Assembly: GCA_943350765.1 (NCBI GenBank)
Contig: CALRAJ010000002.1
Location: 7,994-71,993 of the forward strand
Length of the DNA stretch: 64,000 bases
Reading direction: 5' to 3'
Source of the DNA: Candidatus Tayloriibacteriota bacterium
Lineage (GTDB): Bacteria > Patescibacteriota > Minisyncoccia > Phycocordibacterales > PALSA-1337
In this document: piece by piece, positions 1,927 through 54,038 of the stretch
Numbering within the stretch: position 1 is the stretch's first letter
How the letters are laid out: every line of letters starts with the position of its first letter
Made by a program: the position numbers and the translations under genes
The notes under the pieces: generated by a model
What the model was told of the DNA's origin: nothing
Database searches by the model: none
The model's input: the letters and a program-made list of their open reading frames with translations, nothing else

Positions 1927-2970
1927 TTATATTTCTCTGATCGTGGCTGTAGGTTTTAGATTGACCTGTACTGTTCCCGAGATTGGGTTTCCTGATTTGG
2001 CACTGATACAACTAATCGTATATGTTGTGTTTCGATCAATGGTCCAGCCAGAAACTGATGAGATTAAGTTTCGTATGATATTCCCACTGTACCATGTTGG
2101 ATTATAGCACTCTGAAACACCTGTAATTTCCCAAAGTAGCTTAAATTTTTGGTTTGGATTTACAGTTAGAATGGATTCTTCATTACCTGTATAGTCGGGA
2201 ACGGTAGAATTGGCGGGAGCGGTATTCTTAATACCCTTAAATTTCATTCTGGCTTCGTTTGTGATTGAACTATCGAATACTGTTACAGGCGGGCAGTTTA
2301 GGATTTGTGTTGCATTAGTCGTTAGGTTTTTTAGGGTTACTTGAGGTGCATGTTGCCCAGTCATATTTAGGGTTGTTGTAAATCTGTTTGTACTTCCCGC
2401 TGTTCTAGTTTGCCACGCGTACGTGTAATTAGAATTTGGAGCATCGACACCATTTTCCTTGACTATCCATGTGACGGAACCACCTTTATTTATGGGGGTA
2501 GATGTGGTTAGTTCACAAGTAAATGGTGTGGTTGTATTTGTTCCAGGGTTCACAGGACCGCCTCCACCGTTGTTTATAATAACGGGAGTGCCAGGGGGGA
2601 TCAATGGACCGTTATTGTTTATGATTGGATTTATAACAGTATTCGGATCTACTGTCGGTGTTGTTCCTCCATTATTTCCATTTCCTCCACCTCCGTTAGT
2701 ATTTCCGTTATCGCCACAATCGATTAAAAGTCTTACAACTGGGTCATTGGCGTATTGAAAAGGTTCTGGTATTACGCAGTAAATAAATTCAAATGTTTCA
2801 ATTGTCGCATCTATTACTGCCTCAGTTATGGTTGTTATTGCGTCAACCACTACATCAATAACAGAAGTAACAAAATCAGCAACTTCCTCGGCGTGGGCTT
2901 TTGGAGGTGTCGATATAAAAGTGGTTACGATTAGACATATAATTACTAATTTAGAAATAGCTTTTTTCAT
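1927..2970 (-). CDS. Secreted Gly/Asn/Thr-rich surface protein (signal peptide plus low-complexity linker plus beta-rich domains)
   Basis: N-terminal signal peptide MKKAISKLVIICLIVTTFISTPPKAHA; GDNGNTNGGGGNGNNGG and NNGGGGPVNPGTNTTTP stretches; no recognisable enzyme motifs. Confidence 0.5.
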   Translation of the reverse strand: MKKAISKLVIICLIVTTFISTPPKAHAEEVADFVTSVIDVVVDAITTITEAVIDATIETFEFIYCVIPEPFQYANDPVVRLLIDCGDNGNTNGGGGNGNNGGTTPTVDPNTVINPIINNNGPLIPPGTPVIINNGGGGPVNPGTNTTTPFTCELTTSTPINKGGSVTWIVKENGVDAPNSNYTYAWQTRTAGSTNRFTTTLNMTGQHAPQVTLKNLTTNATQILNCPPVTVFDSSITNEARMKFKGIKNTAPANSTVPDYTGNEESILTVNPNQKFKLLWEITGVSECYNPTWYSGNIIRNLISSVSGWTIDRNTTYTISCISAKSGNPISGTVQVNLKPTATIREI

Positions 2971-3064
2971 AAAGTTGATTGTGTTAAAAAATATAATAAA
3001 TGTTGTATATAGTATATCGCATTAGATTACTTGTGGGTAATGGATCTGGTTTTTATTTTACGCT

Positions 3065-4028: not shown

Positions 4029-4058
4029 TACCATCTACCACACAAGTACTTTTTTCCA

Positions 4059-4092
4059 ATCCCCGGAATTTTCTACTGAAAATTCCGGGGAT
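4059..4092. terminator. Stem-loop ATCCCCGGAATTTT-loop-AAAATTCCGGGGAT after the DUF805 gene
   Basis: 14-bp perfect inverted repeat; a T-run precedes rather than follows it, so terminator function is uncertain. Confidence 0.3.
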
Positions 4093-5839
4093 TACCGTTC
4101 AGTAATTTCATCAGAAAGTGGTTCTCAGGTTGTTTTGTCCACCAGAGGTGTAGTAATGAAGCCAAAAAAGAGACTTTGGAGCCCATTTCTCCCACCAGAG
4201 GCGTAGAAGTAACCCTCTAAAAGGGGGTTCGCAGGCGGGTAGCCGAGACTTCAGGAATTTTCTAGTAAGAAAATATCCGTACCCTTTTAGAGGGTTTACT
4301 TCGTAACCCTTGACTATTATAACCATTCATATATACTACTCCTACCCTAATCGAAACAGGGGTGTTCTTTGAAACTGTGCCAAAATAAGTTATGCATTAA
4401 GAACGTAGTTTAAACGAAGTCGTTTAATACGTGCAAGTCCCTGTAAAGTATTCAACAAGCATATTTTACGGGTGAGTCTAAAAAGTTTAGGAAAGTAGAA
4501 TCTTCGCAGTCGGCGCCCTTCTTTGTTGCAAGCTCCGTTCGCTTCCGCAATGTATTAGTATACATTTTGGTCGCGATACTCGCTCGCGCCTCGAAGTGCA
4601 TCCAACTACAAAGATTCTATGACACACATTTATAACAATAATTTCAAGAGCATAGACAAACTCTAATACAAAGCTTCGGCGGAGTAGTAATTATTTGAAA
4701 ATCAAAGTATAGAATATTTTTCTTTATTTTGTTCCGTTCATTTAATTTAGAGTTTGATTCTAGCTCAGGATGAACGCTGGCGGCGTGGGTAAGGCATGCA
4801 AGTCAAACGGCCCGCAAGGGCAGTGGCGAACGAGGTAGTACAAAGTAGGTAACGACCCTGGAAGTCAGGAATAACTAGTCGAAAGATTAGCTAATACTTG
4901 ATGGTCTCGCGAGAGTAAAGATTTATCGCTTCCAGATCGGCCTGCTCGATATCAGCTAGTTGGTAGGGTAATGGCCTACCAAGGCAATGACGTCTAGGGG
5001 AGCTGAGAGGCTGACCCCCACCGATGGTACTGAGATACGGACCATACACCTACGGGTGGCCGCAGTCGAGAATCTTCCGCAATGGACGCAAGTCTGACGG
5101 AGCGACGCCGCGTGATCGATGAAGTTCTTCGGAACGTAAAGATCTTTTATGAGGGAGAAAGTTTATTGATAGTACCTCAAGAATAAGGGGTTGCTAAACT
5201 CGTGCCAGCAGCAGCGGTAATACGAGTGCCCCAAGCGTTATCCGGAATTATTGGGCGTAAAGGGTGTGTAGGTGGTTTTGTTAGTCTCTTGTTAAACCTC
5301 CCGGCTCAACCGGGAAGATGCAAGGGAAACGGCATAACTAGAGGATGCGAGGGGTCTGTGGAACTCATGGTGTAGCGGTGAAATGCGTTGATATCATGGG
5401 GAACACCAAAAGCGAAGGCAGCAGACTGGAGCACTCCTGACACTGAAACACGAAAGCGTGGGTAGCGAATGGGATTAGATACCCCAGTAGTCCACGCCCT
5501 AAACGATCTTCTCTGGTTTTTCGGAGTATCGACCCTCTGAGAGACGAAGCTAACGCGTTAAGAGAAGCGCCTGGGTAGTACGACCGCAAGGTTAAAACTC
5601 AAAGAAATAGACGGGGACTTGCACAAGCGGTGGATCATGTGGTTTAATTCGACGATAAACGAAGAACCTTACCAAGATTTGAAACCTAGTTGAAGACAAG
5701 AGGAAACTTTTGTCGCCGCAAGGCAATTAGGCAGGTGATGCATGGCCGTCGTCAGTTCGTGGTTTGAATTGTTCCCTTAAGTGGGGTAACGAACGCAACC
5801 CTCGTTGCCTGTTATATATGTCAGGCGAGACTGCCCTCG

Positions 5840-5969
5840 ATTTTGTTCGGGAGAACAAAATCGAGTCGAAAGTAGAAAGTCAAAAGTACACAGTCGGATG
5901 CAAGTGCATCCACTCGGTACTCAGTACTTTCGACTTTTGACTCCGATTTCGATCGCTCGTGATCAAAAT
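5840..5969 (+). other. About 130-nt insertion in the loop of 16S helix 40 (IVS/expansion-segment type)
   Basis: Lies between GAGACTGCCCTCG and CGAGGGAGGAAGGCGAGGATGACG, where E. coli has about 7 nt. The insert is a nested hairpin (CTCGATTTTGTTC/GAACAAAATCGAG; GGATGCA-AGT-GCATCC) and its ends pair (CTCGATTTTG ... CAAAATCGAG). Confidence 0.6.
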
Positions 5970-6099
5970 CGAGGGAGGAAGGCGAGGATGACGCCAGGTC
6001 AGCATGTCCCTCTGATATCTTGGGCTACACACGTGATACAATGCCCGGTACAACAGGTTGCAATACCGCAAGGTGGAGCCAATCCTTATAAGCCGGGCC

Positions 6100-6136
<37 letters not shown>

Positions 6137-6198
6137 CCGGAATCGCTAGTAATCGCAGGTCAGCTATACTGCGGTGAATACGTTCTCAAGTCTTGTAC

Positions 6199-6615
6199 TC
6201 AAAATTAAAAGCGCCAGGCAGGTGCTGAATCTAGGTTGTTAAAATCAACCCTTTCCGAATACAATACAGGAGAGTAGTGAACGGGTAATCATTTGGTCGC
6301 GAGGCTAAGTGATGAAGGATCCTAGTAGCAAAAAGCAGCCCATTCAAAAAAGAGGGATACGACCCATATGGTGAGTTATGGGGAAGTATCGCAAATAACC
6401 TCGAATGGGATGCATGGAATAGAATCAGTACTGACCCTTGGGAGATCTCCTGATATGAAAAACAATCGAAGTATCAGTAGAAGTCAGCTGCGTCGTAGTA
6501 CCCATTTTTTATGATGGGGAAGGACAAAACCGATAGTGTTAAAACTATTGGACTCGCGTAGTGCGGGAAATCCGCTCGCTACGTGGGAACGCAAAATGTT
6601 GTTTCATTATTGCAA
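6199..6615 (+). other. About 415-nt ORF-less insertion in the 16S decoding-centre region (putative self-splicing intron)
   Basis: Interrupts the universally conserved CTTGTAC|ACACCGCCCGTCA block (E. coli about 1397-1400). No ORF over 60 aa; must be removed for a functional 16S. Boundaries are approximate. Confidence 0.5.
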
Positions 6616-6938
6616 TCCGCCCGTCAACTCAAGGGAGTTGGGAATACCCGAAATCTCTGCCTAGCAGGGCCTAAGGTAAGCTCAATGACAGGGAGTAAGT
6701 CGTAACAAGGCACGGGTAGCGGAAGCTGCTCGTGGATTATTTCAATTTGAACACGGTGTACAGTTTCTTCGGAATCTGTATTACCTTAAATGGTCTTTTG
6801 TCATTATTTTGGTGATAGGGTAATGGTTCTGCAACCTCAAATGCGAACCCTCAGCCATGAGAGAGGAATGGCGCAGGTCGGTATCCTCTATAGAGATACT
6901 GACCGGTGAACGGAACAAAATAAAGAATGATATTAAAG

Positions 6939-7326: not shown

Positions 7327-7400
7327 GCGCGCATAGCTCAGTTGGTAGAGCACATCACTGATACTGATGGGGTCCTAGGTTCGAATCCTAGTGCGCGCAC
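7327..7400 (+). tRNA. tRNA-Ile (anticodon GAT)
   Basis: Manual cloverleaf: acceptor GCGCGCA/TGCGCGC, D-arm GCTC-AGTTGGTA-GAGC, anticodon stem CATCA/TGATG with loop CTGATAC (anticodon GAT), T-arm CTAGG-TTCGAAT-CCTAG, discriminator A. CCA is not fully encoded. Confidence 0.9.
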
Positions 7401-7500
7401 CTTAAAAGAACTAATTTGTGACTGTTTGGTACGGATTTTATAACTAAATTAAATCTCATACCTAGTATGGATCGTTCTCGCTAGTCGTCTAATCTAGATC

Positions 7501-7539
7501 GATGGCTCACTGGTTTTACTTTTAAACCAGTGAGCCATC
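7501..7539. repeat. Hairpin repeat, GATGGCTCACTG family (GATGGCTCACTGGTTT-TACTTTT-AAACCAGTGAGCCATC)
   Basis: Perfect 16-bp stem. Paralogous copies at 40398-40440 and 44061-44103 differ by a compensatory G/C swap (tgGttt/aaaCca versus tgCttt/aaaGca). Confidence 0.6.
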
Positions 7540-7594
7540 AACATAGATTGTGTAGGGAGGTTACTTTCAGAGGCTTTTGAAATAGGCTTCTACT

Positions 7595-7687
7595 GAGCCA
7601 TTTGAACGGCTCAACAGCCCTGTGCTTGTAACGAGTTTTACTAAACTCGTTATCTTCGTCACCTTGCTCCTTGAGCTGTTCAAATTA
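7595..7687. repeat. Composite palindromic element, GAGCCATTTGAACGGCTCAAC family, copy 1
   Basis: Left arm GAGCCATTTGAACGGCTCAAC, internal hairpin TAACGAGTTTT-ACT-AAACTCGTTA, conserved TCTTCGTCACCTTGCTCCTTGAGCTGTTCAAAT right arm. Same architecture at 14893-15000. Confidence 0.6.
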
Positions 7688-7816
7688 TATATAATCGATA
7701 TAGTTTATGTTTAGACCCTTACCAAAACCTCAATAATTAGTACATTTATTTGAGCTATGATATACTATGCAACCGAGCTTCTTTTGAGGCTCATTTTTAA
7801 TCAATTTTAATATACC

Positions 7817-9229: not shown

Positions 9230-9251
9230 TTTGGAAAATTGAAAAAGAAAA

Positions 9252-9285
9252 CCCCGCGGCGTACTCGCCGCGGGGTTTTCTTTTG
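9252..9285. terminator. Rho-independent terminator after pyk (CCCCGCGGCG-TACT-CGCCGCGGGG plus TTTTCTTTT)
   Basis: 10-bp GC stem, TACT loop and T-run 23 nt after the pyk stop. Confidence 0.65.
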
Positions 9286-11547: not shown

Positions 11548-11569
11548 CCCGCGCCGTACTCGGCGCGGG
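11548..11569. terminator. GC hairpin CCCGCGCCG-TACT-CGGCGCGGG (terminator-like; T-run 8 nt downstream)
   Basis: Same TACT loop and near-identical stem as the pyk terminator at 9252, with a swapped GGC/GCC segment that preserves pairing. Confidence 0.35.
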
Positions 11570-11687: not shown

Positions 11688-13727
11688 ATGAATGAAGACG
11701 AAAATAAAATTACTTACTTCGGACAAACGGACGCTCGTAATAAAAAAACTCCGTTTGGTATAAAACGAAAAGATCGTTCTAAACACACCTATGTTATTGG
11801 TAAAACAGGTATGGGTAAATCAACCCTGCTTGAAAATATGGCAGTGCAGGATATTCAAAATGGGGAGGGTCTAGCTTTTATTGATCCTCACGGCAAGACT
11901 GCTGAGCTTCTTCTGGAATATATTCCCGAACATCGCATAAAGGATGTTTTGTATTTTGCACCTTTCGATATGGAGTACCCAGTTTCGTTTAATGTTATGG
12001 AGGATGTGGGTGCAGACAAGAGGCATCTAGTGGTAAACGGTCTCATGAGTACTTTTGAAAAGATTTGGGTAGATGCTTGGTCTGCTCGCATGGCATATAT
12101 TTTAAATAATACACTACTAGCACTTCTTGAGTATCCTGGGGCTACACTTCTCGGTGTAAACAGGATGTTGGCAGATAAAGACTATCGAAAAAAGGTGGTA
12201 GATAATGTTACCGATCCATCAGTGAAGTCGTTTTGGATTGATGAGTTTGGAAAGTATACAGAGCGTTTTGCGGCTGAGGCAACTCCCGCTATTCAAAATA
12301 AGGTGGGGCAGTTTACCTCAAATCCGCTGGTGCGAAATCTGATCGGTCAGCCAAAGTCATCCTTTAATATTCGCCAGATGATGGACGAGAAAAAGATTTT
12401 GATTATCAACCTATCGAAAGGTAAGGTGGGAGAAGGGAATGCTAATCTTATTGGTAGTATGCTCATTACCAAAATCTATCTTGCAGCAATGTCTCGAGCA
12501 GATCTCACAGAGCGAGAACTAAAAAAATATCCCAATTTTTATCTATATGTAGATGAGTTTCAGTCCTTCGCCAATAAGTCCTTTGCCGATATTCTGTCCG
12601 AAGCACGAAAATATAAACTAAACCTAACTATCGCCCATCAGTACATTGAGCAAATGGAGGAGGAGGTGCGTGATGCAGTGTTTGGAAATGTTGGCACAAT
12701 GGTGGCTTTTAGAGTAGGTGCCTATGATGCAGAGGTGCTTGAAAAGGAATTCGCTCCACATTTTACATTGGAGGATATTGTAAATCTTGGCGTATATCAG
12801 ATATATTTAAAATTAATGATTGATGGAGTGGGATCACAGCCATTTTCAGCAACTACGATGGCACCTATTAGGTTACCAAGTATTTCTTATAAAAATGAAA
12901 TTATCGAAAGTTCCAGAAAGCTTTTTGCACAGCCGAGATCGGTAGTAGAGGAGGAGATAAAACAATGGCATGAGCAGGAGCGTGTGGGTCCGAGTAAGCC
13001 ATCAGGTGGAGGGCGTGTAGGAGTGGATAATTCAGCCAGTACCAGTCTATCTAAAGGCGGAGGGAGTGTCGGTCAGGTCGCTATCGTATCTAGTGGTGAT
13101 ATAACGCAACCCATTACTCCAATACCACCCTCAAAAACTGTCGTTCAAAAAGTAGAAATCAAAAAAATAGAAAAAATAATTATAAAGGAACCCCTAGTAG
13201 CCCTTAATTTAAAAGATGCGTTAAAAAATATAGTTTTAGGTGCATCCGCGAGCAAGTTTGTTGGGGTTGAAAAACCAAAACCACTTCATCAGATGGTCTC
13301 AACTTCAGCGCCAAATCCTACAGGATATACGGTTGTATCATCTTCTTTAAATGCACCTAGTCATGATCGTGAAATGGATCTTCGTCGTGCGGTTTCTTTG
13401 GATTATTTAAAAAAAGCTCCACAGCAACGCGAGCCTAAAAATCAACCAGGGGGAAAGCCTGTGAGTCAAAAGAATATTGATGATTTACGATCGGCACTTG
13501 CTTCGGTTATGGGTACAAGTTTTCCTTCAAAAAAGTCAGAGGAATCGACCGCTCCATTGGCGGAGCCTATAGTTAAACATCCTAAACCTATCACAGCAAA
13601 TCCTTCCCAAACCTATTCAAAGTCTTTGGAAAAGCCGGTACCAGAAAATAAAAATACAGCAAAGGTAGAGTTGCGTGAAGTACCTGAGGATGTACTACGA
13701 AAAGTACTCAAACTCGATGAAAAGTAG
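11688..13727 (+). CDS. TraG/VirD4/TrwB-like P-loop ATPase (type IV coupling-protein family) with about 260-aa disordered Ser/Gly/Pro/Lys-rich C-terminal tail
   Basis: Walker A VIGKTGMGKSTLL; FYLYVDEFQSFANKSF...ARKYKLNLTIAHQYIEQM resembles the T4CP Walker B/arginine-finger region; low-complexity C-terminus. Confidence 0.5.
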   Translation: MNEDENKITYFGQTDARNKKTPFGIKRKDRSKHTYVIGKTGMGKSTLLENMAVQDIQNGEGLAFIDPHGKTAELLLEYIPEHRIKDVLYFAPFDMEYPVSFNVMEDVGADKRHLVVNGLMSTFEKIWVDAWSARMAYILNNTLLALLEYPGATLLGVNRMLADKDYRKKVVDNVTDPSVKSFWIDEFGKYTERFAAEATPAIQNKVGQFTSNPLVRNLIGQPKSSFNIRQMMDEKKILIINLSKGKVGEGNANLIGSMLITKIYLAAMSRADLTERELKKYPNFYLYVDEFQSFANKSFADILSEARKYKLNLTIAHQYIEQMEEEVRDAVFGNVGTMVAFRVGAYDAEVLEKEFAPHFTLEDIVNLGVYQIYLKLMIDGVGSQPFSATTMAPIRLPSISYKNEIIESSRKLFAQPRSVVEEEIKQWHEQERVGPSKPSGGGRVGVDNSASTSLSKGGGSVGQVAIVSSGDITQPITPIPPSKTVVQKVEIKKIEKIIIKEPLVALNLKDALKNIVLGASASKFVGVEKPKPLHQMVSTSAPNPTGYTVVSSSLNAPSHDREMDLRRAVSLDYLKKAPQQREPKNQPGGKPVSQKNIDDLRSALASVMGTSFPSKKSEESTAPLAEPIVKHPKPITANPSQTYSKSLEKPVPENKNTAKVELREVPEDVLRKVLKLDEK

Positions 13728-14892: not shown

Positions 14893-15000
14893 ATAGCCAT
14901 TTGAACGGCTCAACATCTAGTTTGTACAGAGTCTTGCTAGACTCTGTATCTTCGTCGCCTTCGCTCCTTGAGCCGTTCAAATGGCTCTGCACAGAGCCAT
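14893..15000. repeat. Composite palindromic element, GAGCCATTTGAACGGCTCAAC family, copy 2
   Basis: AGCCATTTGAACGGCTCAAC ... TACAGAGTCT-TGC-TAGACTCTGTA ... TCTTCGTCGCCTTCGCTCCTTGAGCCGTTCAAATGGCT followed by GGCTCTG-CA-CAGAGCC. Confidence 0.6.
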
Positions 15001-15217
15001 TCTAAGTAACATAAGAGATTGGTAGTGTTTTCAACTTTTTGAGCTTTCTTTGTTATTATGCACACAGAATCTTATGCCACAAATCTTTCCAAATATCATG
15101 CTGCACAAGTTCAGATACATATGAGACTTTTAATTAAGTTTTGTATATGCGAATTTTTAACAAATTTAAAGGAACAAAAGGCTTTTCAGATGGTGAAAAA
15201 AATGATATAAAGTAGAT

Positions 15218-34797: not shown

Positions 34798-36143
34798 TAT
34801 ACAGTAGCTTTACTCGCAGTGTTTTCGTCAGGTAATTCCTTTAAATTTTTCAGGAGGAAAAACATCACGAGGGCAGTGAGGTATTTTGTTACAACTAAGG
34901 AAACAATGATACCCAATACTCCATAGAAATATACCGAAATAAGCATGAATACTGTGCTAAAAATACTGACACCAAGACTAAGTATATACTTTTCTTTCAG
35001 GGCTTTTTTTGCGGTAAAGGCAGTATCAGATAAATTACCTAACAGTAGCATAAAGACGGAGTATATTTGGGAATAAAATACCGAATCCATATATTGAGGG
35101 AAGAATATTTTGTATATATAGGGTGCTAGAATAATGTAGGCAAGCACGATTGGACCAAGTACGAGAAGGGAAAGGAGGAATTTTTTTGGCACACTCTCCT
35201 TAAGTTCTTCTAAACTTCTTCCTGCAAGCTTGGGCATAGCAAGTGGTGCCAACATACCAACAAAACTGCGTACCTGTTTTGGTATTGCTGTAGAAAAAGT
35301 GTATATGGCAAGCTCAGCAGCACCTAGGTAGTGGTAGACAAGGACCTTGTCTACTTGAGCAGAAATATTTAGCCAAATATTTATAAAACTTATATGTTTT
35401 CCAAAATTGAAAGCTGTATAGTCGACGGGTGCATCAGTCGTCACCCCACGAGCTATTTTAAAGTAAAAAAAAGATTTAGTCAGAAGATCGGCTCCAAAAA
35501 ATACAGCAACTAAAGCAATTACATTGTCGGTAAAGAGGATTGCAATAAAAAATGCGACAGCTGCCGTAATACTTTCGACAGAATTATACAAAGAGCTTTT
35601 TTTAAAGTCTTTTTTACCACTCAAGTATGGACCGTATAATCCAACCGTTTTTAATAGCGGTGAAATACAAGCGATGATAATAAGCGATATTCCGAGCGTG
35701 TAGTTATTGTTAAATAAATAGTATCCAGCACCGATGAGTGATCCTACTACCATAAAAACACTCCACTTTAAACTCACGGAAATCGCTTTTTTAAATGTGC
35801 CGTCATACCCCCTTGCTACTGCCCGAGTTAGCGCTGTGCCGAGACCTGTCAATGTGAAGGTGGTTATAATACCTGAAATAGAAATAATGTATTTGTAATC
35901 CCCGTATACTTCTTTTGGTAGAAAGTGTGCACAGGCTATTGCGAGTAGGAATGATCCTGCGGAGGCAACTCCCTGACTGAAAAAGAGCCAAAAACTCCCT
36001 TTGGTGAGGTAAACCATGTCCGTCTTTGTAAAACGCTCGCTTTTGCGGAGAAGGGAATATACTCGACTGCGGAGGTTTTTTGGGGTGGGGTCTAGATCTG
36101 GCTGTGTCGGTATTATTGGCATTTCTTTTGTATCTATATCCAT
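34797..36143 (-). CDS. Polysaccharide flippase (Wzx-like, MOP superfamily)
   Basis: 448 aa, about 12-14 TM helices; typical Wzx topology and position in the glycan locus. Confidence 0.7.
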   Translation of the reverse strand: MDIDTKEMPIIPTQPDLDPTPKNLRSRVYSLLRKSERFTKTDMVYLTKGSFWLFFSQGVASAGSFLLAIACAHFLPKEVYGDYKYIISISGIITTFTLTGLGTALTRAVARGYDGTFKKAISVSLKWSVFMVVGSLIGAGYYLFNNNYTLGISLIIIACISPLLKTVGLYGPYLSGKKDFKKSSLYNSVESITAAVAFFIAILFTDNVIALVAVFFGADLLTKSFFYFKIARGVTTDAPVDYTAFNFGKHISFINIWLNISAQVDKVLVYHYLGAAELAIYTFSTAIPKQVRSFVGMLAPLAMPKLAGRSLEELKESVPKKFLLSLLVLGPIVLAYIILAPYIYKIFFPQYMDSVFYSQIYSVFMLLLGNLSDTAFTAKKALKEKYILSLGVSIFSTVFMLISVYFYGVLGIIVSLVVTKYLTALVMFFLLKNLKELPDENTASKATV

Positions 36144-36162
36144 ATATGTTATATTTTAGCAT

Positions 36163-38628
36163 ATGCAAACAAATAATATACTACGATATGTGGTTTTGGG
36201 TGGGATTTTTTTAGTGCCATTTGTTTTCCTAATCGTCTCAGAAAGCTTGTTTTTTCCATTTATTACAGGTAAAGGTTTCGTATTTCGCGTTATCGTTGAG
36301 ATTGTTTTTGGTACATGGCTAATTTTAGCATTACGAGATAGGTCGTATATGCCGAGCTTTTCGAAACTTACTATAGCACTAATTTCATTTACAGGTATTG
36401 TACTCATTGCTGATTTAGCTGGTATGAATCCAGTAAAAAGTCTCTGGAGCAATTACGAGCGGATGGAAGGCTTTGTAGTCATGGCACATCTACTAGGCTA
36501 CTATTTAGTCGCAAGCTCAGTTTTAACGACAGAAAAGCTTTGGGATAAGTTTATGCACACAGCTTTTGGTGTAGGGCTATTTATCTCTTTTTATGCTTTT
36601 CTACAAAAAATCGGAGAAATAAAAATCAATCAAGGCGACACCCGTCTCGACGCCACTCTCGGTAACTCGATTTATCTCGCGGTCACCATGCTGTTCCTGA
36701 TCTTCTTTGGTGTTTTGTGGTTTATACGAAATCGTACTAATATCTCAAATATTTTGTATAGCTGGATACTCGGTCTAGGACTTTTTATCGCCTATCCATT
36801 TTATGCTTATTACCAAAAGTTTTCTGAGATTCAAGACTATTACGGTAAAAATGTTATTCCACAAGAGGTAAAAGATCGAGTATTTTTTTGGGCTGGGCAA
36901 ACTCAAGCGGGTGTTACGACGGGATTGTGGCAACCGATACTTTTTTGGTTGGCAATAGTTTTGTTTATTGTGGCAGTGTACACATACGCAAAGAGTTCTA
37001 AACTAAGTTCGTCTCTACATAAATGGACGGCACATATTTTGTACGGATTGCTGATCGTGATCAATGTGGTGGTTTTATTTAATACAGGTACACGAGGTAC
37101 GATCATTGCACTTATGGGTGGCGCTTTTCTGACCGCGATTATTATTGCTTTATTTGAAAAGCATCGACCTTTGGTACGCAAATCTGCGATAGGGGTCATG
37201 GTAATCATCCCGCTTTTAGTGGGTGCGTTTTATATGGTTCGGACAAGTCATTTTGTTACGAGTCACCAAATGATCGCTCGGTATGCCTTGATATTTACAT
37301 ACGAAAACAAAACACAAGCACGAGGCTATGTCTGGCCTATGGCGATAGATGGATTTAAGGAAAAACCAATTCTTGGCTGGGGTCAGGAAAACTTTAGTTA
37401 TGTTTTTAATAAAAACTATGACCCGAGAATGTATGCTCATGAACAGTGGTTTGACCGGGCTCACAATGTGTTTTTGGACTGGCTCATCGCAGGGGGTATA
37501 CTAGCTTTTCTAGGATATGTTTCTTTGTATGGAATAGTGCTTTACTTTTTATGGAGAAAAAGGGAAGTACATTTTTCCGTAGTCGACAAGGCAATACTCA
37601 CGGGTCTTTTGGGAGCGTACGCAGTACATAATGTGTTTGTGTTTGATAATCTAGTCAGCTACATCCTCTTTTTTAGTTTTCTGGCATACATTCACACCCT
37701 TTCTCATCCGCCAAAAAATGAAACTCTTGTAAATTTTGAACTTGAGAAAGGTATTGTGGAGAGTATTATTGCACCAATCGTTATTATTGCGACAATTTTT
37801 GCAATATACATCATCAACTGGAATGCATATTTTGCTGGACAGACTTTGATAGATGCCTTACAACAGAGAAGTGGAAGCCCAACAAAAACACTAGAGCTTT
37901 TCAATCAGGTCTTTGAGTACGATTCGTTTGGTAGTAACGAGGCGAGAGAACAGCTCTCCATGGCTACTGGACAAATGCTCGGGAAAAATGTCGATCCTGC
38001 TATTCAGCAAAAATTCCTAACACTTGTGCGTAAACAGATAGACGAACAGCTCAAAGAAGCACCTTTTGATGCGAGGGCATATGTTTTTGCGGGTGCTTTT
38101 TTTAGTCAGATTGGACTGGCTGGCGAATCAGAAAAATACTTAGAAGATGCCTATAAGCTGTCTCCAAACAAGCAAAGTATCATTATCCAGCTCGGTGAAA
38201 ATAAAATGAACCTAGGGAAAATAGATGAGGCTGTTACTTTGTTTAAAAAGGCATATGAGCTGGAAACAACACAAGAACAAGCTAGAAATATTTATATTTC
38301 TGTACTCGTCTATGCCAAGCAAGAAAAAGAAGCCGAAAGGATTTTGATGGAATCATACGGCACTACTGTAATACCAGATGAGCGTTTGTTGCAAGCTTAT
38401 ATAAATACAAATAATTTTAAAAAGGCGTTACCGATAGTAGAGTTATTAATTGAAAAAGAACCGAGAAATGTAAAACATCATTTTGCTCTGGGTATTATTT
38501 TATATAAACTCGGACAAACAACAAAGGCAATCGCAGAGCTTGATCTAATAGTTAAAATGGAGCCAAGTACAAAAGGACAGATTGATGAGTATATAAAGTT
38601 GATGAAGGCAGGTAAGTCGATACAATAA
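36163..38628 (+). CDS. O-antigen ligase/polymerase-like (Wzy_C) membrane protein with C-terminal TPR repeats
   Basis: 821 aa; multi-TM N-half with Wzy_C-like segment; C-terminal 250 aa with TPR-like repeats. Confidence 0.7.
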   Translation: MQTNNILRYVVLGGIFLVPFVFLIVSESLFFPFITGKGFVFRVIVEIVFGTWLILALRDRSYMPSFSKLTIALISFTGIVLIADLAGMNPVKSLWSNYERMEGFVVMAHLLGYYLVASSVLTTEKLWDKFMHTAFGVGLFISFYAFLQKIGEIKINQGDTRLDATLGNSIYLAVTMLFLIFFGVLWFIRNRTNISNILYSWILGLGLFIAYPFYAYYQKFSEIQDYYGKNVIPQEVKDRVFFWAGQTQAGVTTGLWQPILFWLAIVLFIVAVYTYAKSSKLSSSLHKWTAHILYGLLIVINVVVLFNTGTRGTIIALMGGAFLTAIIIALFEKHRPLVRKSAIGVMVIIPLLVGAFYMVRTSHFVTSHQMIARYALIFTYENKTQARGYVWPMAIDGFKEKPILGWGQENFSYVFNKNYDPRMYAHEQWFDRAHNVFLDWLIAGGILAFLGYVSLYGIVLYFLWRKREVHFSVVDKAILTGLLGAYAVHNVFVFDNLVSYILFFSFLAYIHTLSHPPKNETLVNFELEKGIVESIIAPIVIIATIFAIYIINWNAYFAGQTLIDALQQRSGSPTKTLELFNQVFEYDSFGSNEAREQLSMATGQMLGKNVDPAIQQKFLTLVRKQIDEQLKEAPFDARAYVFAGAFFSQIGLAGESEKYLEDAYKLSPNKQSIIIQLGENKMNLGKIDEAVTLFKKAYELETTQEQARNIYISVLVYAKQEKEAERILMESYGTTVIPDERLLQAYINTNNFKKALPIVELLIEKEPRNVKHHFALGIILYKLGQTTKAIAELDLIVKMEPSTKGQIDEYIKLMKAGKSIQ

Positions 38629-38645
38629 ATTTTAGGACAGGTAGT

Positions 38646-38687
38646 GTAATTCCCCCGATTTTTGTACTCAAAAATCGGGGGAATTAC
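38646..38687. terminator. Perfect 18-bp hairpin GTAATTCCCCCGATTTTT-GTACTC-AAAAATCGGGGGAATTAC
   Basis: Immediately after the ligase gene; no clean T-run. Confidence 0.4.
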
Positions 38688-38693
38688 ATGCTA

Positions 38694-38721
38694 TTGACTT
38701 TTGCTATAGATTTGCTATACT
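38694..38721 (+). promoter_or_regulatory. Near-consensus sigma70 promoter TTGACT-N16-TATACT
   Basis: TTGACT (38694-38699), 16-nt spacer, TATACT (38716-38721); followed by hairpins and a GC hairpin CCCCGCC-TC-GGCGGGG (38777-38792). Confidence 0.4.
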
Positions 38722-38891
38722 TTACCATGTGAGTACTAACAAAGGTGTTAGTGCCAAACGAATGACTGCGTAAGTCCCCGCCTCGGCGGGGGTTTGCGTT
38801 TATGGCTAAACCAAATTTACTAATTTGGTCGCCCGAACATTTTTTACTAAAAATGTTTTAGGGGAAGTCTTCTGTCTCCAGTGTCTCGAAT

Positions 38892-39103
38892 CCCAAATCT
38901 CTTTCTCGGCACGACCTTTTTCATGCACGAGTATTTCTATGGTAAGAAATCTCTCAAATCTCGCGTGCCATGCCGTAGCCTTTGGCGAAGGCAGGGCTGC
39001 CCATGCACATGAAACTTGCTAGTTTCAGTATCTTCCTCGCCTCCGCTCGTCGACTTCCGAACCCTCTTAAAAAGACATACCTTCGACGAATTTTGCAATT
39101 TTA
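38892..39103. mobile_element. MITE-like element, diverged/expanded copy 5
   Basis: Shares CACGAGTATTTCT-TGGTAAGAAATCTCTCAA and the 3' end CTTAAAAAGACATACCTTCGACGAATTTTGCAATTTT with the other copies; carries an about 70-nt internal insertion. Confidence 0.45.
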
Positions 39104-39295
39104 AATACAAATTCCATTCGGTTGGTGGGGAGAACTTAAATTTTTATTTAACTGGGGTATATTAGTTTGCTGTAGAAAGATTTATTATGGTATACTGATT
39201 GTAATATATTGTTCCAAGTTGTGGTCGACGACTGTACTCACAATAGTCATTTATTTGGAGCTCACACCCGTCGACCAGAATTTGGCGTAATATCT

Positions 39296-40363
39296 ATGAA
39301 AGATTTAGTAATACAAGAAAACATTGTGCTTCGAGATTATACGACTTTTAAAATCGGGGGAAACGCCCGATATTTTTGTGTAATAAAAAACACAGAAGAT
39401 CTAAAATCGGCACGCGTTTTTGCCGAACAAAAACGCGTGCCGATTTTTATCCTCGGTGGCGGTTCAAACATTTTGATATCAGATGACGGTTTTGATGGTC
39501 TAGTCATCAAAAACGAAATCAAGGGTATACAGTATGAAAAACAGCCAGACGGTAAAACCCTAACGACAGTCGGTGCAGGAGAAGTCTGGGACTTTTTTGT
39601 CTCGGATACCATTGCTCACGACCTAGGTGGACTCGAAAACCTCTCTGGTATCCCTGGCACAGTCGGTGCCTCCCCAGTGCAAAATATCGGTGCTTATGGA
39701 GCAGAAGTCAAAGATACTATTGTTTCGGTTACAGCCATCGATCATATCACTGGCGAGGAGAAAATTTTCTCACATGACGAATGTCAGTTTAGTTATCGTC
39801 ATAGTTTCTTTAAAACTTACGCAGGTAAAAAATGGGTCATCACTTATGTGCAGTTTTTACTCGATTCTCTCAAGCCTATTTCAATAGAGTATAAAGACCT
39901 CGTTACTTATTTTGTACCCAAGAACTACACTACAATTTCAAGGCAGAATGTGCGTGATGCTGTGCTCGCTATCCGTCATGCAAAGTTACCTGAATTAAAA
40001 AGCCTAGGCACCGCTGGATCATTTTTTAAAAATGTTACCATCTCAAAACAGCAGTATGAAAATCTAAAAATAAAGTGGCCAAATCTACCAGGCTTCCCAG
40101 TATTGACTTCCGACTCCCGACTTTTGACTACCAAAATCCCTCTCGCTTGGATTCTGGACAATATCTGTGGCTTCAAAGGTATGCGAGTCGGGGAAGTAGG
40201 TGTTTATAAAAATCAGGCACTGGTTTTAATCAATTACGGTCAGGGTACCGCAGTAGATATTGCTAATCTAGCAAAATCTATGCAGGAAAAAGTGTATGAA
40301 ATGACAGGTATTACTATCGAGCCAGAGGTGGAGTATATTTTTCCGGAAAAGTTGTTAAAATAG
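39296..40363 (+). CDS. murB: UDP-N-acetylenolpyruvoylglucosamine reductase
   Basis: FAD-binding FKIGGNARYF..., GGGSNIL; MurB C-terminal domain. Start refined from 39209 to the conserved MKDLVIQENI. Confidence 0.85.
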   Translation: MKDLVIQENIVLRDYTTFKIGGNARYFCVIKNTEDLKSARVFAEQKRVPIFILGGGSNILISDDGFDGLVIKNEIKGIQYEKQPDGKTLTTVGAGEVWDFFVSDTIAHDLGGLENLSGIPGTVGASPVQNIGAYGAEVKDTIVSVTAIDHITGEEKIFSHDECQFSYRHSFFKTYAGKKWVITYVQFLLDSLKPISIEYKDLVTYFVPKNYTTISRQNVRDAVLAIRHAKLPELKSLGTAGSFFKNVTISKQQYENLKIKWPNLPGFPVLTSDSRLLTTKIPLAWILDNICGFKGMRVGEVGVYKNQALVLINYGQGTAVDIANLAKSMQEKVYEMTGITIEPEVEYIFPEKLLK

Positions 40364-40377
40364 CCCAAAATATCTTC

Positions 40378-40442
40378 AACGGCTCACTGGTCTGTAGTCG
40401 ATGGCTCACTGCTTTTTAATACAAAGCAGTGAGCCATCGACC
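40378..40442. repeat. GATGGCTCACTG-family repeat, left boundary of the R-M island (half-site plus 18-bp hairpin)
   Basis: CAACGGCTCACTGGTCTGTAGTCGATGGCTCACTGCTTT-TTAATAC-AAAGCAGTGAGCCATCGACC; near-identical to 44018-44105. Confidence 0.65.
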
Positions 40443-40570
40443 TAAAATATAGCTATAATAAAGGGTTCAATTAGTATTGGTAGGTATATAGGTAAGCGAT
40501 GTACAAGACTATATATTTCTACAAGCAAAAATGATAGAATGGATATATGTGAATGATTTAAAAAAACACT

Positions 40571-41842
40571 ATGAGTAAAGATATAATTACACTATTAAAT
40601 AAAACAAAGATTGATCACTCATGGTCTTTTTCTGATAAGACAAGAAAGGACACGGCGTATATTACGCATGGTTATCATCGCTACCCAGCAAAGTTTATTC
40701 CTCAAATAGTCTCTCGTTTGGCAGAAAAATACACCCGAGAAGGAGATTTTATCGTTGATCCATTTGGTGGGTGTGGAACGACACTCGTTGAATCAAAAGT
40801 TATGGGGCGACCATCAATTGCTGTTGATATTAACCCTGTTGCAGTTTTGATAACAAAAGCAAAAATCACCCCAATTAACCCCGATAAAATTGAGAAAGAA
40901 TTTGCAACACTTCAGAAGAGATTAGAAACTTATAACGAAGATACAAAAGTCAAAGCACATGAACATGAACGGATAGATTATTGGTTCAAACCCGAAAATA
41001 AAAGGAAGCTCGCCTTTATCTTTACCGAAATTTCAAAAATTAAAGATCAGGATGTTCAAGACTTTTTCTTTTGTGGATTTTCAAATATTCTCAAAAATTG
41101 TTCAATATGGTTACAAAAAAGCAATAAGCCGACGAGAGATTTTGAAAAGAAACCGTCAGATCCAATTAAAACTTTTTTTAAGCAAATAAAAATGATGTTG
41201 CGTGGCAACACACGACTATTTGAATTATTATCAGAGAAAGGTTATTTGAAAATTCCAAGCAAGGTAGTTTGTACGGACGCAAGGACAATTCCAGCAAAAG
41301 ACAATAGTATTAGCTTGATCGTTACCTCTCCGCCATATGTTACCTCATACGAATATGCCGATTTACACCAACTTACTGCATTATGGCTAGAATATACAAA
41401 GGATTTGAGTGATTTCAGAAAGCGTTTTATTGGCACTTCATATCACAGTAAGAAAGATTTGATACTCAATAGTTCAATCGCAGAAAGTATCCGAAAAGAA
41501 TTGCTGGAAATAGACAAAAAGACTGCCGAAGAAGTCTCAACATACTTCAGCGAAATGAATCAGGTTTTTGTTGAGATGGAAAGGATACTCAAGAAAGGAG
41601 GAAAAACGTGTATTGTTGTCGGGAACACGAGCCTGAAAGGTGTTAAAATACTAAACGCCGAGGTTTTTGTTGAACAATTACAAAATTTAGGACTGAAAGT
41701 CACGGATGTTATCAAAAGGGAAATACCTTCAAAAAATTTACCCTCAGTGAGAGATAAAAAAACAGGCAAGTTTGCAGCGATAACGGATAAAAATAAAGTT
41801 TCCGCATATCCAACAGAATATATATTAGTAATGCAAAAATAA
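40571..41842 (+). CDS. DNA methyltransferase (N4-cytosine/N6-adenine family, SPPY type)
   Basis: HRYPAKFIPQIV...GDFIVDPFGGCGTT (SAM-binding motifs X-I), catalytic SPPY (LIVTSPPYVTSYEYAD). Confidence 0.8.
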   Translation: MSKDIITLLNKTKIDHSWSFSDKTRKDTAYITHGYHRYPAKFIPQIVSRLAEKYTREGDFIVDPFGGCGTTLVESKVMGRPSIAVDINPVAVLITKAKITPINPDKIEKEFATLQKRLETYNEDTKVKAHEHERIDYWFKPENKRKLAFIFTEISKIKDQDVQDFFFCGFSNILKNCSIWLQKSNKPTRDFEKKPSDPIKTFFKQIKMMLRGNTRLFELLSEKGYLKIPSKVVCTDARTIPAKDNSISLIVTSPPYVTSYEYADLHQLTALWLEYTKDLSDFRKRFIGTSYHSKKDLILNSSIAESIRKELLEIDKKTAEEVSTYFSEMNQVFVEMERILKKGGKTCIVVGNTSLKGVKILNAEVFVEQLQNLGLKVTDVIKREIPSKNLPSVRDKKTGKFAAITDKNKVSAYPTEYILVMQK

Positions 41843-41846
41843 AAAT

Positions 41847-42530
41847 ATGACCAAACAAGATATTGTTAATTTATATGAGAGGTATAAGAAATTACATGGA
41901 AATAATGCCTTCAAACATATTTCTGCAATTTTAATTGAGGCAAAAGGACTTCACAACAAAGATTTTTTGAAAAATCCAACCCCAAAAGGTGATCATGAGC
42001 AATCATGGAAGGGTTTCAAAGGTAGTGCTTTAGAGACATTAATTGATCATGTCTTAAAAGAAGAAGTAAATAGTTTGGGGTTAAATATTGTATCAGGAAA
42101 AAAGTTTGAAAAAACTAAGCCAGAGAATTTATCGATAGAATTGCAGACTGTTAAGAGAAATCTTTCTATTGATTTTGGTGAATTTGGTTTTCATATACCA
42201 GATGTTGATCTAGTAATATATAATCCAAAAACCTTCAAGGTCGTTGCTGTTTTATCAAGCAAGTCGACTTTGCGAGAAAGAATAGCCCAATCAGGTTATT
42301 GGAATATAAAAATTAAGAACTACGATTTAACAAAACATATTAAGGTGTTTTTTGTAAGCCCAGATGAAGACGGTAATTTTTCTCTCGGAAGAAATCTTGG
42401 AAAGAGTAGAGCGATTGTGGAAACAGATCTTGATGGAGCATATGTTATGACAGAGCAATCCGTTAGAGAAAGTGAGAAAGTCAAAACATTTGATAAATTT
42501 ATTGATGATCTTAAAAAACTTTTGAAATAA
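41847..42530 (+). CDS. Hypothetical protein, candidate restriction endonuclease by context
   Basis: 227 aa between two DNA MTases; possible PD..D/ExK-like residues (IPDVDLVIY...SSK) but not convincing. Confidence 0.3.
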   Translation: MTKQDIVNLYERYKKLHGNNAFKHISAILIEAKGLHNKDFLKNPTPKGDHEQSWKGFKGSALETLIDHVLKEEVNSLGLNIVSGKKFEKTKPENLSIELQTVKRNLSIDFGEFGFHIPDVDLVIYNPKTFKVVAVLSSKSTLRERIAQSGYWNIKIKNYDLTKHIKVFFVSPDEDGNFSLGRNLGKSRAIVETDLDGAYVMTEQSVRESEKVKTFDKFIDDLKKLLK

Positions 42531-42534
42531 AACT

Positions 42535-42933
42535 ATGGAACAATTACTTTTACAACTTGGGTTAGGAATTGCTTCAAACACGATGTATGATTTTTTGAAG
42601 GATTTTTTCACTAAAAATTATAAACCTGATAGATTACAATTACAAAATAAGCTAGCTTCTTTTCTTGATGTTCAAAACGCCAACATAATAGCCGATAAAA
42701 TTATTACTTTTTTGGCTCAGAATGGAGATATAAGAATTAATGGAACGAGTATTTACGCTAATGATTCAATTTCTATGTCTTCCACAAAAAACACAAAATT
42801 TACTTTTGGAAATAATAGTTCCAGTACAACGAAAAATACAAAAATAGAAGTTGGTAATGGTGCTTTCATTCAAGGACAAGGCTGTGCAGGAATAAAACAA
42901 AATGACGATGGCAGTATTAATCTTTTTACTTAA
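42535..42933 (+). CDS. Hypothetical small protein with Asn/Ser/Thr-rich C-terminus
   Basis: 132-aa ORF tightly packed (4-bp spacers) inside the R-M island. Confidence 0.35.
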   Translation: MEQLLLQLGLGIASNTMYDFLKDFFTKNYKPDRLQLQNKLASFLDVQNANIIADKIITFLAQNGDIRINGTSIYANDSISMSSTKNTKFTFGNNSSSTTKNTKIEVGNGAFIQGQGCAGIKQNDDGSINLFT

Positions 42934-42936
42934 ATT

Positions 42937-43605
42937 ATGGAAATTGAATCAACAACACTTTGGGATTTTCCAAGACAGAATTATGGAGATACCCCACACG
43001 GAAACAATAAATATAATGGCGTTACCCCTGCGGCAGTAATTTGGAATTTGCTACAACGATACACCAAAGAGGGCGACTTGGTCGTGGATCCGATGTGCGG
43101 AAGTGGAACGACTATCGATGTTGCCAATGAATTGAAGCGTAAGGTTATTGGGTATGATCTTAATGTAACAAGACCAGAAATAATCAAAAATGATTCTCGT
43201 AAAATTCCGCTTGCTGACAATTCCGTTGATTTTATTTTCATTGATTCGCCGTATTCGGACAATATAAACTATTCCGATAATAAGGAGTGTATAGGAAAAA
43301 TATCTTGCGAGAAAACGGAATTTTATGATGAGCTAGAAAAAACCGCTAGTGAAATCGCAAGGATTTTGAAGCCCGGCAAAGCGATTGGTTGGGTAATCGC
43401 TGATCAATGGGTAAAGAAGAAATTTACGCCTGTTGGTTTTTTAATGTGGCAGAGATTAGAAAAATATTTTGAAACAGTCGATATGATTTGCCTCACTCGT
43501 CATAATCAAACATCAAATACGGGAATTTGGCACGAACGAGCAAGACAGTATAACTTTTATCTCAGAGGATTCAAGTATCTATTCATAATGAGAAAAGTTA
43601 AGTAA
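42937..43605 (+). CDS. DNA methyltransferase (short N4/N6 family, second MTase of the island)
   Basis: PAAVIWNLLQRYTKEGDLVVDPMCGSGTT (motifs X-I) and FIFIDSPYSD (motif IV variant); paralogous N-terminus to the MTase at 40571. Confidence 0.7.
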   Translation: MEIESTTLWDFPRQNYGDTPHGNNKYNGVTPAAVIWNLLQRYTKEGDLVVDPMCGSGTTIDVANELKRKVIGYDLNVTRPEIIKNDSRKIPLADNSVDFIFIDSPYSDNINYSDNKECIGKISCEKTEFYDELEKTASEIARILKPGKAIGWVIADQWVKKKFTPVGFLMWQRLEKYFETVDMICLTRHNQTSNTGIWHERARQYNFYLRGFKYLFIMRKVK

Positions 43606-43668
43606 AATAGAAATAGGCATAAAACTATTTAGATGTACCACGCACGCATCGTCTAGTACTAAAAAATC

Positions 43669-43677
43669 TGGTATAAT
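43669..43677 (+). promoter_or_regulatory. Extended -10 element TGGTATAAT, 9 nt upstream of ATG 43687
   Basis: TGnTATAAT; no Shine-Dalgarno; predicts a leaderless or near-leaderless mRNA. Confidence 0.4.
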
Positions 43678-43686
43678 GTCTATACT

Positions 43687-43992: not shown

Positions 43993-44017
43993 CCCGAAGC
44001 AGAGCCATTTTATGAAA

Positions 44018-47215: not shown

Positions 47216-47292
47216 GTAAATGAAAACACTTTGGTGGTTAAAATGCTAGATTTCCAGATTTTAAATCAAGCTAAAAATGTCTAAAAGTATTT

Positions 47293-54017: not shown

Positions 54018-54038
54018 CCATGTTTTCCTAAGACCATA

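Follow-up and report, generated by a model that had tools for sequence, protein, structure and literature searches.

What are three related hairpins doing between the genes of a bacterial chromosome, and does the manner in which their arms differ betray selection for a structure? This question is raised by the GATGGCTCACTG hairpins of Candidatus Tayloriibacteriota bacterium (GenBank assembly GCA_943350765.1), found in a 64,000-nt stretch of contig CALRAJ010000002.1 (positions 7,994 to 71,993 of the forward strand); this whole stretch is hereafter called the window. A preliminary description, made from the letters of the window, had read a paired base change between the hairpins as covariation implying selection for structure and had likened the hairpins to repetitive extragenic palindromic (REP) elements. 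Our analysis leads us to believe, with a probability of roughly 0.6, that they belong to a lineage-specific, dispersed and perfectly palindromic intergenic repeat built on a GGCT...AGCC core, resembling REP elements and miniature inverted-repeat transposable elements (MITEs). Taken in this way, the locus combines a REP/MITE-like repeat of a Patescibacteria genome with a clean case of a restriction–modification (R-M) cassette inserted with duplication of its palindromic target.

Three hairpins and the palindromes around them

The three hairpins are as follows:

7501–7539, no strand: GATGGCTCACTG hairpin copy 1, perfect 16-bp stem, loop TACTTTT (GATGGCTCACTGGTTT / TACTTTT / AAACCAGTGAGCCATC)
40397–40441, no strand: GATGGCTCACTG hairpin copy 2, perfect 19-bp stem, loop TTAATAC
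44059–44105, no strand: GATGGCTCACTG hairpin copy 3, perfect 20-bp stem, loop ATAATAC

All of them are intergenic. Copy 1, which weaker outer pairing widens to 7491–7549, sits 100 nt past the tRNA-Ile gene, at the end of a 16S–tRNA-Ile unit. Copy 2 begins 34 nt after the murB stop codon and is the left copy of a duplication; copy 3 is the right copy of the same duplication, located between an inserted cassette and a conserved minus-strand gene (44249–44584). The hairpins exist where the preliminary description had placed them, and they are far beyond chance expectation. The exact 12-mer occurs seven times in the window; with up to two mismatches there are 13 matches against 2.98 expected, a number reached in 0 of 100 shuffles. 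Likewise, the window contains 13 perfect hairpins with stems of at least 14 bp, while 20 Markov simulations yielded none. The stems are very stable (−33 to −38 kcal/mol; folding z-scores from −7.6 to −10.5), the RNA fold of copy 1 amounting to −32.8 kcal/mol with a z-score of −10.2.

The 3′ flanks of the three hairpins read AACATAGATT, GACCTAAAAT and GACCTCGTCT; a U-tract after the stem is absent at all three, and a terminator scan of 36000–48000 reported neither the 40397 nor the 44059 hairpin. In Rfam none of the repeats had a match, whether the gathering threshold or E ≤ 0.05 was applied, and a known RNA family was rejected since neither search mode gave a hit. Asymmetric loops of 7 nt are typical of this sub-family. 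It had been stated that these loops differ only slightly, which does not hold: the 7501 loop (TACTTTT) is unrelated to TTAATAC and ATAATAC, and only the two murB-site loops are similar. Within the 7501 loop stands TACT, which also forms the loop of the genome's canonical terminators and has the same strand orientation there.

Two contigs from independent assemblies (comparison contigs are cited by their L numbers) end within the 44059 hairpin, in its loop or right arm: L002 at window position ~44088 and L003 at 44081; the loop of L002 is one base off (ATATTAC vs. ATAATAC). These ends could be an assembly break at the palindrome, or they could reflect population heterogeneity at the cassette junction. 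Hairpins that break metagenome assemblies in this manner, with two contigs stopping inside one, matter for the reconstruction of such genomes.

The paired change itself is real and is seen in the alignment: at stem position 13 (pair 27/41 of the alignment) a G:C pair is replaced by C:G, the G-to-C change in one arm being matched by C-to-G in the other. The accompanying statement that perfect stems are preserved is true of each stem taken by itself, but in the 19-bp frame of copies 2 and 3 the base of the 7501 stem has two unpaired positions (CCATCAAC vs. CCATCGAC), one of them a single uncompensated G-to-A change. The tally for the three copies is one compensated change against two uncompensated ones. 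Moreover, copies 40397 and 44059 are not independent, as both lie within one direct repeat, and covariation among three sequences was equalled in 168 of 500 shuffles. For these reasons, the swap among the three copies is weak evidence and is not significant. A single "compensatory" change between palindrome copies is in general a weak sign of selected structure, because the copies may be mutual duplicates and because DNA-level processes can restore symmetry without selection.

The three hairpins are a sub-branch of a larger superfamily of palindromes sharing the GGCT...AGCC core. Copy counts for this superfamily cover 81,895 bp of one genome, namely the window extended by same-genome sequence of 8.5 kb upstream (L028) and 9.4 kb downstream (L030). 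Here, 16 perfect and two imperfect members are found, approximately one per 5 kb:

7501, 40397 and 44059 hairpins: GGCTCACT type
53984–54017, no strand: GGCTCAAC type, 16 bp, loop GT, after gatB; further examples at L028:711 and at L030:14152, 14252 and 19381
1139–1180, no strand: GGCTAAAC type, 20 bp, loop CT; further copies at L028:797 and L030:16332
50850–50895 (23 bp) and 50988–51021 (17 bp), no strand: two GGCTAAAC palindromes, both loopless
1121–1144, no strand: small GGCTCT hairpin, imperfect, neighbour of 1139–1180 in the interval 1121–1180
14980–15001, no strand: small GGCTCTG palindrome of the GGCTCT type, following the long member 14895–14986
7596–7689, no strand: long version, arms AGCCATTTGAACGGCTCAA and TTGAGCTGTTCAAAT, the right arm decayed
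14895–14986, no strand: intact long version, 19-bp arms around 54 nt

The two members at 1121–1180 are placed between convergent genes. The long versions consist of 19-bp arms around ~55 nt, and in the case of 7596–7689 the enclosed ~55 nt hold a TACT-loop hairpin and ATCTTCGTCACC. Across the superfamily, the two GGCT cores stand 6 to >60 nt apart, with spacers of 0 to 60 nt; GGCT/AGCC words ~11 bp apart stand upstream of several members, and solitary half-sites exist as well, the core AA[ACT]GGCT[CA]A being conserved on both strands.

Two counts show that the repeats occur only between genes, in most cases shortly after the end of one. All 18 window matches to the extended motif [AG]A[ACT]GGCT[CA][AT][AC][CT] fall into the 12.4% of the window that is intergenic, and 11 of the 12 loci in the window, L028 and L030 lie downstream of a gene or tRNA.

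The arms stay strictly Watson–Crick complementary while their sequence varies between copies. In 19 non-redundant hairpins, 311 of 318 stem cells are Watson–Crick pairs; at the variable positions the proportion is 98.9%, compared with 66.5 ± 2.3% when the partner arms are shuffled. A pair count over 16 aligned copies found 97.5% of cells paired (80.8 ± 1.8% in shuffles) and eight of 13 pairs changed on both sides with none changed on one side only, a result as good as which appeared in 0 of 500 shuffles; G·U or one-sided states are lacking in all 202 cells. Loops of 0–2 nt are frequent among the members, and the loops of most members read alike on both strands. Such evidence indicates a constraint acting on DNA at least as much as on an RNA fold, so that the dyad symmetry is probably kept mainly at the DNA level; the sub-family with 7-nt loops may plausibly act as RNA at 3′ ends. 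Consequently, the claim that covariation implies selection for structure survives in part. Dyad symmetry is indeed maintained, both in the superfamily and among the murB orthologues, but the three-copy swap cited in its favour does not carry it, and a palindrome at the DNA level is at least as likely as an RNA fold.

The relatives available for comparison were L016/L018 (JGI, Logan), L020/L021 (ENA, NCBI), L032 and L035. MurB of the first two pairs is 77% identical to that of the window, and pyruvate kinase (pyk) of L032 is 87% identical. One member occurs in 19 kb of L016 and one in 21 kb of L020, while L032 (21 kb) and L035 (14 kb) contain none. The junctions that bear repeats in the window measure 25–140 nt in the relatives. 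In L020, the spacers are only 25 nt from obg to gatB and 73 nt from gatB to gap, the latter being where the window has its 53984–54017 palindrome (whose arm type is that of the post-murB hairpin in L016/L020), and the region corresponding to 50850–51021 is only 140 nt long and without any hairpin of stem ≥9 bp. The spacer between tRNA-Ile and pyk is 81 nt and hairpin-free in L032 vs. 415 nt in the window. Few or no copies in these relatives, together with short junctions, show a lineage-specific expansion: the family has multiplied in the lineage of the window.

Genome contigs (one per species) and JGI metagenomes were also scanned with the exact pattern ATGGCTCACTG-N8-24-CAGTGAGCCAT, both arms being required to be perfect. 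No related copy was detected in these genome and metagenome contigs; the 11 matches were set aside as unrelated single hairpins of other taxa, several of them terminator-like. A scan of viral contigs with CCATTTGAACGGCTCAAC gave no match.

Contigs L037, L038 and L039, with pyk 91% identical, were considered as a closer comparison for the 7501 locus and proved uninformative, as a transposase-like remnant replaces the upstream region. In L037:1–170 (also in L038 and L039), the region upstream of pyk reads, by eye from the DNA, like the C-terminus of an rve/DDE transposase (...YNGERPHYALGQ...). The lineage of these contigs, which begin there, may have an insertion sequence where the window has the 16S–tRNA-Ile unit and the hairpins.

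The restriction–modification cassette at the murB site

Between the two murB-site hairpins, Pfam and NCBIfam results delineate an inserted cassette, bordered by 22-bp units that resemble single hairpin arms:

40376–40397, plus strand: 22-bp half-site unit TCAACGGCTCACTGGTCTGTAGTC, arm-like, direct orientation, just upstream of hairpin copy 2
40444–43986, plus strand: inserted Type II R-M cassette
40571–41842, plus strand: N6/N4 methyltransferase, in the cassette
41847–42530, plus strand: BsaWI-family endonuclease, in the cassette
42535–42933, plus strand: open reading frame (ORF) of 132 aa, in the cassette
42937–43605, plus strand: second methyltransferase, in the cassette
43687–43992, plus strand: small winged-helix (wHTH) protein, last gene of the insert
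43987–44060, plus strand: left part of the right duplication copy, composed of AAATAGCCC, then AGAGCCATTTT, then two 22-bp units
44017–44038, plus strand: 22-bp unit GATGGCTCACTGGTCTGTAGTC, right duplication copy
44039–44060, plus strand: 22-bp unit GATGGCCCAGTGGTGTTTGGTC, right duplication copy

The 3.5-kb cassette occupies a site between murB and secA; neither an integrase nor a transposase was found among its genes. Its GC content is 34.4% vs. 40.3% for the window. Homologues of the endonuclease are 60–92% identical across phyla (69–78% in proteins named Deltaproteobacteria, Elusimicrobia and other Patescibacteria; 62–67% in archaea), and the methyltransferase–restriction enzyme–methyltransferase (M-R-M) unit occurs at unrelated loci in L023, L025, L027 and L040. 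Low GC, cross-phylum homologues and unrelated locations together point to horizontal acquisition of the insert.

In L016, L018, L020 and L021 the cassette is absent, and the order is murB, one hairpin, a small minus-strand gene and secA. These empty sites have one half-site at the position of the left copy (AACGGCTCACTGGT in L016, CAATGGCTCAGT in L020), and the half-site core AACGGCTCACTGGT is identical between L016 and the window (14/14 nt). The hairpin of the empty site in L016/L020 is perfect and different in sequence, AAAGGCTCAACG(G)...C(C)GTTGAGCCTTT: four stem positions differ from the window, and every change is matched in the opposite arm.

A direct repeat of ~68–86 nt around the 40397 and 44059 hairpins flanks the cassette. 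The 68-nt repeat is 88% identical, or ~98% if the extra 22-bp unit is counted as an insertion. The 9-mer AAATAGCCC holds the murB stop codon at 40358–40366 and supplies the stop codon of the wHTH gene at 43987–43995, so the duplication seems to start at the murB stop. The units upstream of the hairpins (40376–40397, 44017–44038 and 44039–44060), which the preliminary description had missed, are direct copies of one arm with a period of 22 and 2.6 copies according to Tandem Repeats Finder. Overall, the comparison shows that the murB-site copy and its upstream half-site were duplicated when the M-R-M cassette inserted, giving the near-identical 40397 and 44059 copies. One copy of the palindrome has thus been the landing site of a horizontally acquired R-M system.

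Insertion of R-M genes with long target duplication is a published class (Nobusato/Furuta/Kobayashi; PMC2853133). Our case fits it in that an insert of <20 kb carries both R and M genes and no mobility gene, in that the flanking direct repeat of >30 bp aligns with the single half-site and hairpin of L016/L020, in a between-species comparison, and in that the repeat reaches into the 3′ end of the gene before it. Unlike in the published cases, the duplicated target is itself one of a family of palindromic repeats, an additional 22-bp unit has been acquired by the right copy, and the empty site comes from different species rather than from a strain of the same one.

No such hairpins accompany the homologous cassettes of L023, L025, L027 and L040, and the idea that the cassette carried the hairpins along was rejected on this ground. 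The wHTH gene was rejected as a shared cassette component, the 100-aa gene of L027 showing no resemblance to it. In L027, an unrelated metagenome contig, the M-R-M cassette and a LexA-like gene are flanked by a 139-nt direct repeat (2891–3029 and 7358–7496, 83% identity), located just downstream of a tRNA-like sequence ending in CCA; this arrangement resembles a further R-M island with long direct repeats at its borders.

The called murB gene has a terminator-like perfect hairpin within its 5′ end (window 39403–39447; L016:10102–10140), the two sequences being different. Among the matches listed, murB homologues mostly cover 88–92% of the query. The true start of murB probably lies downstream of this hairpin.

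Known counterparts and competing explanations

REP families lie mostly downstream of genes and comprise sub-families with alternative complementary stem residues; their stems are mostly of 6–9 bp with frequent G·T pairs, and the GTAG/CGTC tag is part of their definition (PMC3733652). Like REP elements and bacterial interspersed mosaic elements (BIMEs) as described there, the palindromes of the window are short, dispersed and extragenic, lie mostly downstream of genes, form sub-families that differ by complementary changes of both arms (here 8/13 pairs in 16 copies) and have a species-specific abundance. As to copy number, which in REP families is typically >100 per genome, the 82 kb contain three sub-family and 18 superfamily copies. 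The tandem half-sites of the window are direct, while BIME units alternate in orientation. "REP-like", the label chosen in the preliminary description, is the best one available, but a consistent tag is lacking and no REP-associated tyrosine transposase (RAYT) was found in the ~82 kb; the relation to classical REPs is one of analogy only. Our literature search yielded nothing relevant on such repeats in the candidate phyla radiation (CPR)/Patescibacteria.

Foldback MITEs (Neisseria Correia elements, ERIC, RUP) are the other group to be compared. The long members, with their 19-bp terminal inverted repeats around ~55 nt, resemble them, and the short palindromes resemble two MITE-like inverted repeats abutted; like MITEs, these repeats are intergenic and their presence varies between relatives. 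As for a parent insertion sequence with the same ends, no transposase is found in the 82 kb, and an rve-type remnant is seen only in the relative L037. Unlike in MITEs, the arms differ between copies by compensated changes, a pattern not predicted by a transposase recognising a fixed end.

If the repeat is REP/MITE-like, the following scenario might be drawn. A transposase acting in trans is assumed to be the spreading agent. The symmetry would be kept either by one arm templating the other, via intrastrand template switching in quasi-palindromes, or by spread of the repeat through a single-stranded hairpin intermediate; template-switch correction, a subject associated with Ripley and with Lovett and co-workers, is reportedly an established route that gives paired changes in one step. 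Where the stems are transcribed at gene 3′ ends, they could act as 3′-end barriers or terminator-like structures. At the murB-site palindrome, the R-M cassette inserted with a long target duplication that doubled the hairpin and half-site. REP elements are known as insertion targets. Genomes of Patescibacteria (CPR) are small and usually described as repeat-poor, and perfect palindromes at such a density would extend our knowledge of their genome dynamics.

Several observations weigh against this explanation. The GTAG/CGTC tag is not consistent: CGTC is found close to one of the 18 hairpins and GTAG close to one, and among the three GATGGCTCACTG copies GTAG abuts only that at 40397. No transposase, RAYT or integrase was found in the ~82 kb (the window and ~18 kb of flanks). 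The stems, 11–23 bp, mismatch-free and without G·T, are unlike the short G·T-rich stems of REPs, and no target-site duplication was found around the palindromes, their flanks having no direct repeats. Not every copy is at a 3′ end, for one locus (L028:711 and 797) is flanked by divergent genes. In the genomes that supply the empty sites, MurB is only 77% identical to that of the window, and with them the exact junctions of the insertion cannot be fixed. Finally, the position of the post-murB hairpin is kept across three species and the half-site upstream of it is 14/14 nt identical in L016, a conservation which speaks for a role in the host more than for an element that is purely selfish.

This last point leads to an explanation in terms of RNA, according to which the hairpins would be structures at transcript 3′ ends (terminators, or stabilisers of mRNA or rRNA 3′ ends) with a selected fold and with compensations arising in place. 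As in intrinsic (Rho-independent) terminators, a stable stem-loop directly follows a stop codon. In addition, the hairpins fold very stably as RNA, 11 of 12 loci are downstream of a gene or tRNA, the 7501 loop shares its TACT and strand orientation with canonical terminators, and at the conserved post-murB position four stem positions have changed on both sides. However, intrinsic terminators have a U-tract, which none of the three hairpins has, and would not share their sequence between unrelated loci; a selected RNA fold would hardly leave 202 cells free of G·U and one-sided changes, or make loops of 0–2 nt common. A separate class of hairpins with A-tract/T-tract flanks and TACT loops already fills the terminator role, and close relatives differ in having or lacking the repeats at gene junctions that are conserved in other respects. 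We therefore regard the RNA explanation as unlikely, although it is the most serious of the rivals. Less probable still is that hairpin and 22-bp half-sites form a site of site-specific recombination or transposition (att/dif/lox-like), the cassette being a mobile module whose enzyme is encoded elsewhere. It is tempting to suppose so, as two directly repeated sites with near-identical 7-nt spacers (TTAATAC/ATAATAC; a 7-nt spacer is common to all three copies) flank the cassette, the half-sites have a period of 22 bp, about two helical turns, GGCT/AGCC words stand ~11 bp apart upstream of several members, and the same cassette type in L027 is also flanked by a direct repeat (139 nt). Yet neither the cassette nor the ~82 kb encodes a recombinase or transposase, the empty site of the relatives already has half-site and hairpin, and the duplication appears to begin at the murB stop (AAATAGCCC), outside the hairpin, as a target duplication would. 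In addition, a core spacing of 6 to >60 nt is incompatible with a fixed dimeric site, and the cassette homologues L023, L025 and L040 do without such hairpins.

A further idea, for which we would put the odds slightly lower again, is that GGCT palindromes with their 11-/22-bp phased half-sites are substrates of an undescribed hairpin-recognising DNA enzyme that copies arms and admits foreign cassettes. Were such an enzyme real, its arm-copying would explain the perfect, wobble-free stems, and we would be dealing with a REP-like system of a reduced genome, one that lacks the GTAG/RAYT hallmarks and also serves for the capture of cassettes. As to the GGCT words being DNA uptake sequences, or sites of an abundant DNA-binding protein, that are paired by happenstance, this is very improbable. 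Uptake sequences of Neisseria and Haemophilus are often inverted pairs downstream of genes, and the core AA[ACT]GGCT[CA]A does occur on both strands and in solitary half-sites. Nevertheless, no core k-mer is over-represented in the window (AACGGCT is found 13 times vs. 6.9 expected, z 2.3), and the matches to the extended motif are all intergenic, whereas uptake sequences are frequent inside genes; uptake sequences were rejected on the k-mer counts.

The host chromosome and other repeats of the window

The window (GC ~40%) is a segment of a bacterial chromosome with cell-wall, polysaccharide and housekeeping genes, almost all on the plus strand. Where homologues of its MurB and its pyruvate kinase bear taxon names, these are Patescibacteria, Parcubacteria or Paceibacter, and the host is an uncultured Patescibacteria (Paceibacteria-like) organism. 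Several ENA and Logan metagenome assemblies hold contigs identical to the window; among these, L001–L004, L028–L029 and L030–L031 are 99.99–100% identical, and as near-identical sequences they were uninformative about strain variation. The ribosomal unit preceding copy 1 consists of two genes:

4742–6255: 16S rRNA gene
7327–7401: tRNA-Ile of the 16S–tRNA-Ile unit

No 23S gene was found downstream of them in the window, which means that the rRNA genes of this host are unlinked. A second partial small-subunit rRNA match lies at 6256–6747 and a match to group II intron D1-D4 at 6447–6525; positions 6553–6773 are conserved with L032, where a LAGLIDADG ORF stands just upstream of the matching stretch. 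The partial rRNA match, the intron match and this conservation suggest that the 16S gene has an intervening sequence close to its 3′ end. Elsewhere, a 679-aa protein (11688–13727), encoded between housekeeping genes and a glycosyltransferase cluster, shows weak VirD4/TrwB (type IV coupling protein) domains.

A second repeat family is composed of ~146-nt elements with terminal inverted repeats ACCCCAAATTACAAAAT...ATTTCGTAATTTGGGGT that form a long imperfect hairpin. Its five window copies, 62–86% identical and without an Rfam match, are listed with a copy in L030:

6998–7143, 9314–9458, 32703–32873, 38895–39101 and 52180–52324: second repeat family, window
L030:16152–16272: second repeat family, downstream extension

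One of these copies sits in the obg–gatB spacer, the one reduced to 25 nt in L020.

In a class of hairpins with long, perfect stems (up to 22 bp), which in many cases are flanked by A-tracts and T-tracts as in bidirectional terminators, nearly all members share the tetraloop TACT on the gene strand; the copy at L030:21048 has AGTA instead:

4058–4093, 7629–7652, 9243–9284, 11548–11569, 38645–38688 and 38836–38857: TACT-loop hairpins, window
L016:9471 and 14743, L020:14799, L028:840 and 6051: TACT-loop hairpins, other contigs

Orthologues of this class in three species differ at several stem positions while their stems are still perfect. Another loop, NTAATAC, recurs at 34765, 40416 and 44079.

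Three copies of a further module (7625–7675, 14921–14968 and 38995–39045) combine a variable hairpin with loop T[AG]CT and a conserved single-stranded tail, TATCTTC[GC]TC[GA]CCT[TC][GC]GCTC. The stems are TAACGAGTTT/AAACTCGTTA, TACAGAGTCT/AGACTCTGTA and TGAAACT/AGTTTCA. Rfam gave no match for the module, which resembles a small structured RNA in its compensated stems and conserved tail. Finally, a perfect 20-bp palindrome at 54034–54075 (CCATACATCGATTATACGCA TG TGCGTATAATCGATGTATGG), has the ATG of the GAPDH gene (54072) in its right arm and could serve as an operator or in the control of translation.

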